Shown here one piece after another: positions 11,637 to 21,757 of a stretch of DNA of 64,000 bases. The position numbers and the translations under genes were made by a program. Numbering within the stretch: position 1 is the first letter of the stretch; the number at the start of each line of letters is the position of its first letter. The stretch spans positions 1,623,797 through 1,687,796 of the forward strand of contig NC_090597.1 of NCBI RefSeq assembly GCF_000497125.1, given 5' to 3'. Source of the stretch: Spironucleus salmonicida. Its lineage: Eukaryota. The notes beneath the pieces were generated by a model. That model ran no database searches. It worked only from the letters and a program-made list of their open reading frames with translations, and was not told the DNA's origin.

Positions 11637-11984
11637 TCATTATAGTTCAGCTACTTATTTGCAATCTATTTATATTTGCTACTTAAGTTCATCAATATTA
11701 GAGAATTATTAATTATCTCTCAATTTTTTAACTATGACCAATTTAAGTTCTTCTCCATAGAAATCACCATCAAATTTATGAAGAATATGGGCCTCTACAG
11801 TTTTATGCTCACGTTAGAAGGTTTTCGAAATTCCAGAAAAGATAACTGCATTATAAACTACACCACGTAATATAGCAGTTCCTGCATAAACTCCATCATC
11901 TAAAGCACCTAGTACATTTGCTGTAGGATATCCTATCTGACGCCCAACTTTGAAACCATGTTATACTAAAGATGAAAACTCCAT
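11637..11984 (-). CDS. RFK: Riboflavin kinase (monofunctional flavokinase), ~115 aa
   Basis: HGFKVGRQIGYPTAN, GVYAG, VEAHILHKFDGDFYGEEL and FSNIDELKQQIQIDC. Alternative in-frame ATGs lie at 11996 and 12044. Confidence 0.92.
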
Positions 11985-12395
11985 TTTATCATACATAGAT
12001 ATTATTTATTAATATTAATATAGAATTTGTAATGTTGAATTCATGATTACACAAACATATTATATTTAATTGATATTATAATATATAAATTACGCCTTAC
12101 TGTAAATCGTATATTTTATAACAATAGTAGAATTTAAATAATAAATAATAAGCGAAATAGGCGTCAACAAATTTTCTACATTATGATATGATATGTAAAG
12201 AGATAATTACATAAATATATAAGATAAATTAAAATATAAGTATTTAATCACTTCATGTATTGGTCAATATAAATTAAACTAATAGAGAAAAGTCAAAATG
12301 TTCCAGATATTAAGCGCATCATTAATAAACTTAGGTCTGAGTGAATATAAGTGAATTATTACTGAATACAAAAATTTAAATATAATCAGATTAAA

Positions 12396-15058: not shown

Positions 15059-16498
15059 TCATTGAATAAAATGAAAGTCCCTCTCCCAATTACCAATATT
15101 CGGATAATGAGGATTTGTAAACCAACAGTCTAAAATCTATTATTTAAGGATACCAAATAATTTTTTATCGACAATATTGTAACGTTTAGCTATCTCTTTT
15201 AAATTATGAATGCTTGGTCTTGATCTCAATATTTCAATACCCACATGGAAATTCAAAAAAATATTATCCATTTTATTATAAAATAGGCTTCCTTCTATTT
15301 TATTAAGTGCATACGCTGCAATTAATACTTCGGGTTCCATTTAATATAAATTTTCTATCCTGAAGTTATTAAAAATCAAAGTCTAGAGTTATGTAACGCA
15401 AAGACAAATTTTCACCCCCTAAACCGCCGAAATAAGTGGAATAATATACCCTGCACTATGATTTAATTATTTTTTGCATTACTTATTAGCATTTTATAAG
15501 TGTTCAATTTTTACACAGTCAATGGTCATCTAGAACTGCATATCTACTACTATTGATAAGTATCCTAGAATAATTTTGATTGTTTGAATAGATATATTTT
15601 AGTTTGAAGATATGATATTAGAAAGTTTTTCAAATGAGATAATAATTGAATTGTTAATAATTTAGTCTGAAACGAAAAATTTATTAGCAAATTCTAATGT
15701 TTTATCTAACCAATCATTTAATGATGGTAGTAGATAAAATTATTATGATGAATCTCTAAAAATATCAATAAAAATATGTTTAAAAAGATGCGTGTGATTT
15801 ATAAGAATTTAGATTCCAGTTAACAAGTTGGTATCAAAACACTTTACAAGCTCCTATTAATATCTAGATCTTGATACAATTTTTAATCTATTGATTAAAG
15901 GTAATTGTTGTAATGCATCACCTACACGTTGAGAAAATGTAAATTATAACCTAGCTGAAAATCTCAATGCACGAAGCATGCGAAGAGGATCTTAAGAGAA
16001 TGTTACTATTGGATCAAGTGGGGTATCTAATATCCTATTTAATATGTCTGATATACCTCTTCCGGTAAAATCTTCAACAATATTATCTTAAATATTATAA
16101 AAAAGAGCATTAACGCAAAAATCTCTACGAAATGCGTCTTCTTCTGGTGATCCAGGTGTAACTTATGGTATTCTTGACGATTATTCGTAAGTTTCACATC
16201 GTAAATCTACGAAATCAATCTAATACTCAAAAATCTTCGTAGTTGCTGTTTCTAAATGCTTAGATTTATTCGGATTAGATTAAATAACTCCTATAGAATG
16301 CGGATTCGTCAAATTTTGGCTTGCTATAGTTGCCAACTCTAAACCAGAGCAACCCTAAACCGCAATATCAATATCATGAGGTTCTAAATTTAAAAGCTTG
16401 TCCCGTACCCATCCTCCAACGGCTCTAATTGGTAAGTTTGTAATTTATTTTAAGTAGTCAAAAACTTCCTTTTCTGAGTAAGTAAGTTTTAACTCCAT
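15059..16498 (-). CDS. CCA1: CCA tRNA nucleotidyltransferase (class II), 479 aa
   Basis: AVGGWVRDKLL...DIDIA, NPNKSKHLETAT, DFVDLRCETY, EDAFRRDFCVNALFYN and DPLRMLRALRFSARL. Confidence 0.93.
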
Positions 16499-16550
16499 TT
16501 TAATAAGGAGTGTATCTTTATTATACTATATATAATATTTAAAACCTAAA
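16499..16550. promoter_or_regulatory. Putative 52-bp bidirectional AT-rich promoter
   Basis: Only 52 nt separate the divergent ATGs of CCA1 (16498) and the ankyrin gene (16551). The function is inferred from position only. Confidence 0.5.
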
Positions 16551-18503
16551 ATGTCAAAGAAAACGTAACCTACAACAGAAGATTTAGAGATTTATTTTGC
16601 CGCCGCATAAAGGGGAGATAAAGTTAGACTTACAAAATAATCAACTTTATGTCGTAAATATTTCTCACCTGAAGATAAAACAGCACTTATGTATTGTTGC
16701 GAAAATAACCATGTTAATGTAGCACGCATTGTCGTTGAAAAGGAAAAGAATATACGAAATAAATGCAACTATTCTGCACTTATGGCAGCAACGCGAGCAG
16801 GTTGCATGCAGCTTGTTCAAGGGTTGCTAGTGGAAGCAGATTTGCCACTTCTCGGAAATTTTGATCACCTTTTTAAGGGCGAATACGCATCCCAAATAGC
16901 TATTAGGTTCAATAATTTGGATATCGCCGATCTCCTAATCCAAAAAGAGCCCTCATCAGCCTTGACGCGATTATTCATCCAAGCGTTTGAGCAAAAGGCA
17001 GTAGTCGCTAAACAGCTTGCTTTCGACTCCTTGAACAGAACTCCCCTCATGTACGCAGTCATGAACGTTACGAACCCGAACCTTCAAAAAGCAGTCTCCT
17101 GCTACTCAAATTACGCGCAAATTCAAGACGAAAATGGATTCACAGCGCTAATGCATGCCGTGTGGTGTAACAATATCGAAGCGGTAAAGTTGTTTTGCGT
17201 TAAAAAGTTCGAGCTCAAAATCTAGAGCAAATACAGCTTTGCTCAGCTGCATCAGGGCTTTACCAGTTTGATGCTGGCTGCATTTTTGGACCGCGTAGAG
17301 TGCGTTCAGCTGCTCAGTCAATACGAGTTGGGAATCGTGAATATCGACCTGGAACTAGCAGTGGATTACGCCAAAAGTGACGTTGTGTCCAAGGAACTAG
17401 CGGCTGAACGCGAAATTTCACGGATTAAGACATTCAGCTTTCAAGAAATAACATAGCTCGCATATGATATCAAAAATTCGCTTGTTTTAGGAAAAAGAGT
17501 TAATTAGACCCAAAATACACAGAATATGAGCCTGCTGAGCTCAAACAGTGTTTGTACAGCTGTCAGCAAGGTCTTTTAGATCGATGATGAGCGAATACCT
17601 AATATAGTTGTTTAGGACATTCTAAAATTAACGGAATCGAATAATGTTTCAGAACTGGTTGAAGGCATTAAAAATAGAGAAAACCTGATTAAATAGATTA
17701 AAAAATATAAAGAAGGGGTAGATTTGGAGAATAAAAAGGATTTTGATACTATTGATAAATGCAAATAGAATAAGTTGGATTTGGACGAAAGTCATAAATT
17801 TATAAAGCTAGGTATTGAGAAATTAAAAGCTTAGCAAAAATTATTGTGTCCACCGTCAGAAATTGATTAAGAATTACAATATACTGTGGATGTAGTAAAT
17901 TTTGAGCAAGAGGCGTGCAATATAATAGATACAGAATCTGCTGATTTCTCATCTAATACTATCTTCCCATCTAAGAATAAAGAAATTATGACTGAATTGC
18001 ACACATATTAAATTGATTAGTTTTCTAAGGCGATTCTTGAGATATAACCACAGATTTTAGTTAAGAATTAAATTGTATAGGAAGCACTTATAAGTATTAA
18101 CACTGAAAGATAGAGAATTATTAAAACTATTAATAAACTATTAAAAAGAACTGGTAAAATTAGTATTCTAGATATTAAAAAATAAATAGATCTACTGAAA
18201 TCTGTAATTGGTGGAAGTGTGATTGACTAATAAGATACAGCTCCTAAATTTAAAACTTTAATAAATTAAGAAGATATAGATATAATTATTTCTTAAAAAG
18301 GTAATATTGATAAGTAAATTTTACAAGCTACTGAACAGGTAGGAAGTTTATCAGATGATGTACAAAACCTAAAGCTGGAATTGGAATAAAAACTATCAAA
18401 AATATAAAATATTATGGCAAAGAAAGAATATTATGTCGAAGAAGTTTGTGTAAATCAAAGTGATTTACTGAGCAATATTTATGAAAAAACAGACGGTGAA
18501 TGA
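16551..18503 (+). CDS. Ankyrin-repeat plus coiled-coil protein (diplomonad Protein 21.1 type), 650 aa
   Basis: Repeats KTALMYCCENNH, YSALMAATRAG, RTPLMYAV, GFTALMHAVWCNNIEAVKL and TSLMLAAFLDRVECVQLL, followed by a long coiled coil. Confidence 0.88.
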
Positions 18504-18684: not shown

Positions 18685-21249
18685 ATGCGGACTATTCACA
18701 AATCTTACCCTATTTTATCGGAAAACGCAAGGTGTGACCTTAATCTAGTGATGCACAATATTTCTGGACCAGATCATGTGGCTGCTAGAGTCTATTTACA
18801 ACTTGTACGGATTTTAGCGTCACCTACTTTACGTGTTCATTTACGTACTCCTAAAACATGGCAACATATTCTAGGATTATCTGCTGCGTGTAGAATTTTT
18901 AGTATACCGTTAGAGATACATATTGATTCGTCTTAACAGTTAAACGTATTTAACTTTTATGCTATTTGGGGATCTCTTTAAATGGGTGCTAAAGTTTCTA
19001 GAGCTCCATTTACAGGTTAGTTTACAAGAGATATTACATCCAAGCAGGAGGAAGAAGCTATGAACATTTCAGTTGATGAACTTCTTAAAGAAATTAAGGA
19101 CGATATTCTTGTTATTCCTTTAGAAACATCTTGCTTTTCAAGACATGACTTTACTTAAGCTGTTAGAGCTAAAAGACCATGCTGTCATGTAGTAGGTCTT
19201 CCTTTAGAAAATGAAAACGATTATACCTGCTGGATCTAAACTGCCAATTTAAATATTAATTATGGTTATTTCTTTTATTATATCTCACAAGGAGAATAAT
19301 TTAATAAATAGTAATTAATTAAAAATTATGATTTTTTACCAGAAAAACTTATTCCTGATATCTCATTTGATAATTTTGATATTTTTGAGAATGAACTACA
19401 CGAACTCCTTAATGAAAGATTTTATACTAACTTGCCTTAAATTGACAATGTATTAGAAGTTACAGAAGCTGAAATGTTAGAAGCCTTCAGATAATTCATT
19501 AACTAATCTCACTCTTTAGCCACCGGATCATTCTTAACACCATTAGCCGGTGTTTTGAGTAAAAAGTTCTCCTTTACTGACAAAAGTTAAATCACAGTTT
19601 GGATTACTGGAGCTATTTAATCTACTCTACATTAACAAGATTTCTTAACATATACTTAGTATTACATTAAGAAGGCTCTTGAAAAATCATATGAGCTTAT
19701 TAGTATGAAAGTGGAGATAGATGTAGATGATATGCAGCAAGTTATTGAACTTATGGATATTCTTGATAAAAATGTACTTATTATTTAGAGCTGGAAATTT
19801 GAAAAAGAATTTGTAGCTCTTGAATGTATGAGTCCAGGATATGATCCTTTAATGACCACAATTGCCGAACTTAAATTAAGGTTTGGTAAGAAATCAGTTA
19901 TATGTAATGATATTCCTAAACGTGCTCCTCCTCTTTAGAAAGCTACTAATCAAGATTATTCAGCGGAACATGGTGACAATACTGTTTATACATCCAATTT
20001 GAATTCTTTATAAGATATTACTCCAGAATCGGTTAAGTTAGCTTATGAAAGATTAGTATCACGCCAATGTACTGATAAGACAGGGGTCTTACTTTCTTAA
20101 CACTATACTTAGATACTGGGACACAAAGTCTACTTTGTAATGGAAAATTTATAACAGACTGGTTCATTTAAGATACGTGGTGCTACTAATATGCTTTTAA
20201 AGGCAATTGAATAAAATCCTTCGCTTTAGGGTGTTGTTGCTTGTTCTGCTGGTAATCATGCTTAAGGTGTGGCGAAAACATCTAAGGCTTTAGGAATTAA
20301 GTGTACTATTGTCTGCCCTGAATCCGCGCCAGCGACAAAATTATATGCTACTCAGAGATATGGTGCTGAGGTCATTAAACATGGTCCCGTTTTCGATGCT
20401 GCTTAGTCATATGCCTTGAATTTAGCCAAGTAGAGAAATTGGTTATTTGTTCCACCTTTTAATTCATTTGATGTAGTTGAAGGATAAGCTACAATTGCTT
20501 ATGAAATGTATCAAAAGATAAAGCCTGACACTGTTATTGTTAACGTAGGTGGAGGTGGTATGATCGCTGGTATCACCACTTATATGAAAAAAGTGGCGCC
20601 AAATACTAAAATTGTAGCTATTTAAGCTGAAAAAGTATTCCCTCTTGAAGGTTATGAAAATACACATAAATTTGTTGATGTTGATAAAACTGCAGCTACA
20701 ATAGCTGACGGTTGTAATGTTAAAATACCTGGTGGTGTTCATTCTCCAGTTTTTGATGAGATTAGTTAATATGTTGGTGTTTCAGAAAATGAAATTGCTG
20801 CCACTATTATTAATTTCTTACTAACAACTAAAACTGTCACTGAAGGTGCTGGATGTATGGGATTGGCGGCTTTGTTGTATAAAAAGTATATCCCTGCTGA
20901 AAATGAGAGCATTGCTGTAGTAATTTGTGGTGGAAATATTGATTTGAGTAGAATTGCATAAATATTCTAGACTGGAACCATTTCAATGGGAAAATATATG
21001 TAAATGAAAATGCTTATTGGAAATGGGCCTGGCTAGCTTCTAAAAGTTATGAAGACCATTTAAAAGTTTGGAGGTGTTTGTGATAAGATAAGACATACTA
21101 GAAATGATCAAAAATGTGACTGGGATAGAGCCTGGATGACCATTGGTTGCAGAGTTCCATGCATGGAAGCATGTGATAAATTAAAGAGGGCTCTGAAGGA
21201 CCATTACAATAATATTATTTACCCTGGTGAAGATATAATACCAAAGTGA
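18685..21249 (+). CDS. Threonine dehydratase/ammonia-lyase with a duplicated degenerate N-terminal dehydratase+ACT module, 854 aa
   Basis: The C-half has ENLQQTGSFKIRGA, CSAGNHAQGV, VGGGGMIAG, TIADG, EGAG and ICGGNID plus an ACT-like tail. The N-half shows the same layout in degenerate form. Ends AAG TGA. Confidence 0.92.
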
Positions 21250-21757
21250 TGGATTTTATAGTGGCGTAAGTGTTATTATCGATAAGTATCAGATGTTTAT
21301 AAAATCACTCTATAGTAAAATATAATGCAGGACATTAACCCAATTTTTAAAATAGTCTATAATATATTAATAATTTGTGTCATTATTCATTAGTTTTTAC
21401 TCTCTGCTGTAAAATTAGAATTTACTAGCCTTATTGTCAAAATGTTTAAATAGTAATAAATTTGATATGGCATAATTCAACTAGTGTACGCTCATAAGAC
21501 TTAGATAAAATACTTTTAAAGTATATTTAGTGATTTTAAATAAAATTTTAGGAAATTTACAACTTTAGTGATTTACATTTAAATTTATTTAGACCTTAGT
21601 TTCTAACAAACATATTTTTTAATTTCTATGATAGAGATATTTATCAAAATAGTATGATATATATAAAATTTTAACCTATCTAGAATTATTATTATTATCT
21701 TTGCTTTATTTACACATTCAAATAATATATTAGTATAAATTTCGTATATTTAAACCA

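Follow-up and report, generated by a model that had tools for sequence, protein, structure and literature searches.

The gene at positions 18685-21249 on the forward strand of the window, the 64,000-nucleotide stretch of a Spironucleus salmonicida contig (NC_090597.1) analysed herein, encodes a threonine dehydratase fused to a catalytically dead copy of itself, and the pseudoenzyme-enzyme tandem described in the initial annotation was thus confirmed. We propose, with a probability of roughly 0.55, that this protein would act as a one-chain pseudo-dimer having a single active site and a single site for nucleotide. In Spironucleus, Giardia, slime moulds, and other protists, the dead half is probably an integral regulatory partner of the live one.

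The 854-aa protein is read in a single frame with TAA and TAG translated as Gln (NCBI table 6), and this frame is open only under that code. The 34 such codons would be stops in the standard code, and one could therefore suspect a pair of genes or a faulty assembly that the non-standard code merely reads through. This explanation, to which we attach practically no weight, was ruled out: a paralog in the same genome shares the layout with no TAA or TAG codon (L002:1501-4143, GC3 0.98, against 0.23 for the window gene), the standard-code Giardia and Dictyostelium have the same tandem, and a single contig spans the gene. Indeed, in all four public runs (one study; none is recorded as RNA, and their probable RNA status is a guess), one unbroken contig extended from 18690/18710 to 21249/21254, while positions 21364-21685 were without cover; these contigs speak to continuity rather than to expression level or strand. 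The claim of one gene, and not two with separate transcripts, was thereby borne out. The database model P0002 (832 aa) begins at the second ATG (18751) and omits 22 residues (18685-18750), including the conserved Y8 and L11; we preferred the 854-aa start because the contigs in all four runs begin 5' of 18751 and residues 6-19 are kept in the relatives. All motifs quoted in the initial annotation were found at their places, with AAG (K496) at 20170, GCT (A33) at 18781, SAGNH at 20245, and GGGG at 20548. The features are summarized in Table 1.

Table 1. Features of the tandem dehydratase gene and its neighbours in the window.
Feature	Residues	Positions	Strand	Evidence
Whole ORF: dead dehydratase+ACT, linker, live dehydratase+ACT	1-854	18685..21249	+	Frame; unbroken contig in 4/4 runs
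Dead fold-type II (PALP) domain, predicted	1-334	18685..19686	+	hhalign 99.8; model vs TdcB 2gn0 Z 15.9, rmsd 5.1, 236 aligned
Segment with conserved Y8 and L11, candidate equivalent of partner-monomer T31-T34 in the S. pombe serine racemase cleft	7-11	18703..18717	+	Y in 31/34 covered rows
A33 at PLP-lysine position	33	18781..18783	+	Lys in 0/36 covered N-halves
Decayed SAGNH loop	57-63	18853..18873	+	Alignment
Lost glycine phosphate loop	152-155	19138..19149	+	Alignment
Insertion, predicted helix-loop-helix pair at the relatives' EF-hand position; calcium ligands lost	183-250	19231..19434	+	Model; relatives
Motif (Y/H)-T-H-T, candidate equivalent of partner-monomer R275-M276-K277 of the cleft	274-277	19504..19515	+	H in 34/39, T275 in 34/39
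First ACT domain, predicted	337-411	19693..19917	+	ACT structures Z 8.6-9.8, rmsd 1.8-3.5
Linker	412-441	19918..20007	+	Almost no regular secondary structure in model; block pLDDT 74-89
Intact dehydratase domain	442-762	20008..20970	+	Pfam PALP E 3.6e-70; model vs TdcB Z 38.9, rmsd 2.3
Live-domain landmarks: K496 (20170), SAGNH (20245), GGGG (20548), C748; relay T492, N524, Q527, E720, N751		within 20008..20970	+	
Second ACT domain, predicted	~770-841	20992..21207	+	Model strand-helix pattern; TIGR01127 match 470-840; 1tdj aligned 436-851
Riboflavin kinase		11637-12212	-	
PolyA-polymerase-family nucleotidyltransferase		15059-16807	-	
Ankyrin-repeat protein		16551-18503	+	
Hydin-like protein, 5247 aa		21758-37501	-	

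Judged from its profile matches, motifs, and structural model, the C-terminal part (residues 442-841) is an intact single-ACT threonine dehydratase. The Pfam PALP match covers residues 466-749 (E 3.6e-70), and the class motifs are all present, namely K496 in SFKIRG, S521-H525, G622-G625, and C748-N751. The PLP lysine, SAGNH, glycine loop, and ACT domain described for this module were hence all found, and the catalytic residues (K, S, N, H, four G, D, and E) were invariant in all 39 C-halves aligned. The best NCBIfam model for the live half was that of the single-ACT threonine ammonia-lyase, TIGR01127 (ilvA_1Cterm), at 338.1 bits, which falls short of the equivalog cut-off of 378.75 bits; among the relatives, 13 of 33 lie above it, in part through score contributed by the dead half. 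TdcB was the best solved relative, and the full-length AlphaFold model (pLDDT 91.5, pTM 0.91) superposed on it with a Z of 38.9 and an rmsd of 2.3 over residues 442-762. Profile match and model agreed on the domain order, fold-type II and then a single ACT domain. The intact motifs suggest that the C-half deaminates threonine to 2-oxobutyrate. The pTM of 0.91 fits a fixed arrangement of the two halves, saying only that the arrangement is confident.

In the pairwise comparison, the resemblance of the N-half to the C-half was weak (BLASTP E 0.011 over 102 aa). The N-half alone gave no Pfam PALP match, contrary to the expectation of two such matches in this protein, and TIGR01127 matched it only over residues 252-375 (E 1.7e-4); weak Pfam matches to BglII and COMMD1_N were put down to chance. 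The family profiles gave a far clearer signal. An hhalign comparison of 39 N-halves with 39 C-halves returned a probability of 99.8 (E 4.9e-30, 362 columns, 12% identity), and that with only the nine diplomonad-clade N-halves a probability of 97.3 (E 1.7e-11). An HMM built from the 30 non-diplomonad N-halves scored the window N-half at 38.6 bits, against a best of 4.6 among 200 shuffles, and one built from the 39 C-halves found 34 of the 39 N-halves at E < 0.01 (best 4e-45, window 6.8e-4). In the AlphaFold model of the N-half (pLDDT 91.8), fold-type II PLP enzymes matched over residues 1-335 and ACT domains over 337-411, the match to IlvA/TdcB having a Foldseek E of 1e-13 and a Z of 16.2 (rmsd 5.0, 310 aligned); since it was built from the family alignment, the model is not independent of the profile evidence. 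The PALP fold claimed for this half was thus recovered by structure search together with an ACT fold.

The profile alignment also paired A33 with K496 and H61 with H525, just as had been proposed. A Lys occupied the catalytic-lysine column in none of the 36 covered N-halves versus all 39 C-halves, and the patterns FK.RG, SAGNH, and GGGG had zero matches across the 39 N-halves; the replacement of the catalytic motifs noted for the window protein is hence a dead state shared family-wide. As read from these alignments and the model, residues 1-411 are a second dehydratase+ACT module whose PLP lysine, SAGNH, and glycine loop are gone. A new PLP-independent catalytic or binding activity of the N-half could be argued from the conservation of N25, R35, P145, W183, H276, and G309, but it appears very improbable, as the old active-site positions vary like background (mean conservation 0.38 vs 0.40) and no new conserved constellation was seen there.

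A search with residues 440-854 as query yielded 568 matches, and among the best 120 examined, the top 42 were mostly long proteins of 849-1344 aa, these rows also including two fragments and the window's own P0002. The sources of tandem-type proteins were Hexamita, Giardia, Dysnectes, Chilomastix, dictyostelids, Planoprotostelium, Protostelium, Diphylleia, and Barthelona. The alignment of 39 proteins, from which P0002 and the shorter or partial P0032, P0038, P0040, and P0132 were left out and to which P0136 was added, exhibited the dead+live layout in every member, covering diplomonads, other metamonads, Amoebozoa, and Diphylleia; two intact lysine motifs in one chain were found in none of the proteins fetched. 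The comparison with Giardia and Hexamita orthologues that the initial annotation had recommended therefore revealed the same layout, and its reach far beyond the diplomonads had not been foreseen there. A 579-aa Giardia record, P0273, is without the dead PALP domain. In Amoebozoa, Diphylleia, and Metamonada, the dead half retains its full length and an open frame; it shows 59-66% identity among three pairs of dictyostelid proteins and is retained in all three gene copies of the S. salmonicida genome; from the sequences, it is evidently kept under selection after losing catalysis.

In the trees, the N-halves formed one clade (100/100) and the C-halves another (100/98), and the two clades were sisters among single-ACT enzymes, with a support of 95 in the quick tree, which included 19 of the 39 pairs, and of 93/78 in the careful one, which comprised 10 of them and was built after removal of the insert columns; this placement is to be read with the long branches, the outgroups drawn from a C-half-biased search, and the unstarred sister relation of the careful tree in mind. 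One tandem duplication with an early loss of catalysis would be the simplest reading of the trees: an ancestral single-ACT dehydratase (ilvA_1Cterm/TdcB-like) would have been duplicated once, and the first copy would have lost the PLP chemistry. The duplicated gene would then be either very old in eukaryotes or passed between eukaryotes. The threonine dehydratase gene was reportedly among those covered in an early diplomonad gene-transfer paper, and a single duplication across Amoebozoa, Diphylleia, and Metamonada would alter how the Giardia gene, labelled a "lateral transfer candidate", is to be interpreted. Threonine dehydratase also appears in the lateral-transfer table in the available part of PMC7641422. 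When prokaryote genomes were scanned for patterns drawn from the diplomonad N-half alignment, which is a weak test, none of the 154 pattern matches was confirmed.

According to the available text of PMC5998037, TdcB is activated by AMP/CMP, and in both serine racemase and TdcB the link between PLP and the nucleotide site is made by five residues; in that of PMC6333871, the nucleotide sits between two subunits, and the contributing residues of each are listed. The equivalents of all five relay residues (T492, N524, Q527, E720, and N751) are present in the window live half, and T492, N524, E720, and N751 occur in 39/39 C-halves and Q527 in 29/39. The residues of the cleft were mapped via motif anchors and the hhalign pairing, using the site list from PMC6333871. 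At the own-subunit positions, the mean conservation was 0.78 in the live half vs 0.36 in the dead half (background 0.40), and at the partner-subunit positions it was 0.61 in the dead half vs 0.50 in the live half; the random-segment p for the dead half, 0.013, is post hoc, the motifs having been spotted first and mapped later. The conservation peaks of the N-half lie at residues 1-40, 271-290, and 301-310, and the first ACT domain scores at background or lower, with 0.32-0.43 in each 10-residue block. Such complementary conservation fits a single working cleft composed of the live half and the dead half. That the conserved surface of the dead half maps to the partner side of this cleft also went unremarked in the initial annotation.

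In the proposed mechanism, the C-half would be a catabolic L-threonine/L-serine dehydratase that yields 2-oxobutyrate from threonine, and the dead N-half would fill the position held by the second subunit in the family's dimer and complete an AMP-type nucleotide cleft, thereby activating the live half; each chain would therefore have a single active site and a single functional allosteric site. The Giardia enzyme supplies 2-oxobutyrate to PFOR according to the available text of PMC5355454, and control by energy charge would therefore suit it. An allosteric or scaffolding role of the dead half is what we infer, and the regulation by nucleotide and calcium as well as the half-half interface are predictions from sequence.

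Several observations weigh against the nucleotide cleft. T717 is invariant in the live halves as well; THT is already present in the nearest single-module relative P0144, and of 63 single-module proteins, five have H at that position. In place of the adenine-stacking Arg, the window protein has Gln and 26/39 proteins have Y or H, and the position of the relay Gln is S or G in 10/39 live halves. Furthermore, the dead half diverges fast, the identity between the window protein and its GC-rich paralog, both with a dead N-half, being 31% for the N-halves as against 53% for the C-halves. The partner-subunit segments are at the dimer interface and could have been retained for packing alone, and the halves might contact each other through ACT-ACT pairing instead of the nucleotide-cleft side. 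A dead half that is purely structural, burying the dimer surface and stabilising the live half with no ligand sensing, would account for conservation peaks that take in subunit-interface segments, for the loss of the calcium ligands from the window insert, and for the relay Gln missing from those 10 live halves; we nonetheless consider it rather unlikely, as the window live half retains all five relay residues, and the canonical EF-hand loops described below, unneeded for plain scaffolding, persist in about five separate lineages.

The one-chain pseudo-dimer appears to have acquired a further element in its dead half, an apparently EF-hand-derived insertion that was overlooked in the initial annotation. 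Following the conserved W183, most members possess an insertion of ~70-110 residues, at the place that the TIADG region occupies in the live half. Pfam EF-hand models matched this site in 15 of 30 relatives, all below the Pfam cut-off (best E 1.4e-4), and a PROSITE-like pattern for a canonical 12-residue acidic loop matched there in 15/39 N-halves and in 0/39 C-halves; nine of the 15 proteins belong to one tight clade, leaving about five lineages. The insert of P0016 retrieved the EF-hands of KChIP, CDPK, and centrin (best E 1.5e-4), and the second loop of the relatives' insert looks incomplete.

In the window protein, the model placed helices at residues 193-201, 208-214, and 231-247 with bridge residues 206 and 228, which we take to be the arrangement expected of an EF-hand pair. 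Its loop is two residues shorter than that of Hexamita, and the pattern scan found no canonical loop in it or in the eight other diplomonad-clade proteins. When the window insert alone was scored against the family insert HMM, 121 of 300 shuffles scored as high, and of the nine diplomonad-clade inserts only the two from Hexamita exceeded chance (1 and 0 of 300 shuffles); the profile-profile match was modest (probability 59.5, E 9e-5), and the 50 matches listed for the N-half model included no EF-hand structure. We accordingly read the window insertion as a relic, predicted not to bind calcium, of an EF-hand pair which the dead half would have gained and which may provide a calcium input in some lineages.

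A dead half acting chiefly as a sensor of amino acids or Ca2+ through its own ACT domain or EF-hand, with nucleotide control being minor, appears unlikely. The separately retained ACT fold, the sub-threshold EF-hand matches concentrated at one site in half of the 30 relatives, and the resemblance of the P0016 insert to KChIP and CDPK EF-hands at E 1.5e-4 speak for such a sensor, but the first ACT domain is conserved at or below background, the canonical loop is absent from the window protein and the rest of the diplomonad clade, and every EF-hand match stays below the Pfam cut-off. With the pseudo-dimer as the preferred reading, a broader scheme can be put forward only tentatively: in a widespread and so far unrecognised protist family, the dead copy would be a two-input regulatory subunit coupling an AMP cleft and EF-hand Ca2+ binding to threonine/serine catabolism, and the diplomonads, including the window gene, would have kept the nucleotide arm while the calcium arm decayed. 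An EF-hand within a PLP pseudoenzyme, if true, would tie calcium signalling to amino-acid catabolism. Separately, the clade of P0029-P0031, P0033-P0037, and P0039 has canonical EF-hand loops together with a Ser in place of the relay Gln in the live half; in this clade, calcium control may have taken over from nucleotide control.

Fused enzyme-pseudoenzyme tandems in which one duplicate regulates the other are represented by mammalian hexokinase I, eukaryotic phosphofructokinase, and the JAK kinases, all of which have folds other than that of the dehydratase tandem, and in the trypanosomatid AdoMetDC prozyme a duplicated copy has reportedly turned regulator as a separate polypeptide. Threonine deaminase itself is a founding example of allostery. 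With TIGR01127 and TdcB, the live half shares the fold and the motifs, and the AMP relay residues are kept; the single C-terminal ACT domain is common to the live half and TIGR01127, TdcB itself being without one. Unlike either, the module is doubled in one chain, and its first copy is dead and bears the insertion of 70-110 residues. The predicted two-part nucleotide cleft tied to PLP by five residues resembles that of the serine racemase dimer as presented in the available parts of PMC6333871 and PMC5998037; that enzyme, however, is homodimeric and has two sites of each kind, whereas one active and one nucleotide site are predicted here within a single chain. The eudicot TSB-like pseudoenzyme is likewise a dead fold-type II paralog, whose role is allosteric there and putative here, but in the available text of PMC12727527 it is encoded by a gene of its own, activates another enzyme (TSA), and is unfused to a live self-copy. 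Fold-type II enzymes are treated as allosteric oligomers in the available part of PMC9081730, where no such tandem is described. In the literature searched, we found no description of a dehydratase-pseudoenzyme tandem, although the supplements of genome papers and InterPro records might already show the domains. A separate dead fold-type II regulator and fused pairs in other folds are already known; for dehydratases, the searches turned up no fused case.

A one-chain asymmetric enzyme, if true, would split the catalytic from the partner-subunit role, and each could therefore be altered on its own. The tractable Dictyostelium and Giardia are affected as well, the proteins being annotated as plain threonine dehydratase though nearly half of the chain is a dead copy. 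According to the available text of PMC5355454, the Giardia enzyme is substituted in all three metronidazole-resistant lines; by number, positions 12 and 348 fall in the dead half, the numbering being not an exact match to the Giardia protein P0012.

The genes around the tandem in the window (ankyrin-repeat protein, Hydin-like protein, nucleotidyltransferase, and riboflavin kinase; Table 1) suggested no functional link to the dehydratase. The two further gene copies lie on contig C3 of the assembly and differ from each other at 4 of 4260 bases, and the protein of one is identical to P0004, named by NCBI as the Spironucleus salmonicida threonine dehydratase. The GC-rich paralog is located in an inverted duplication (L002 and L003, G000:C3:1035560-1051010; L009) with arms of at least 5 kb and a unique spacer of ~5 kb, and an IF-2B-family gene is present in the portion examined. 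Two other fold-type II genes, L007:1186-2301 and L008:1177-2130 (both on the reverse strand), look by their motifs like ordinary single-module cysteine synthases.
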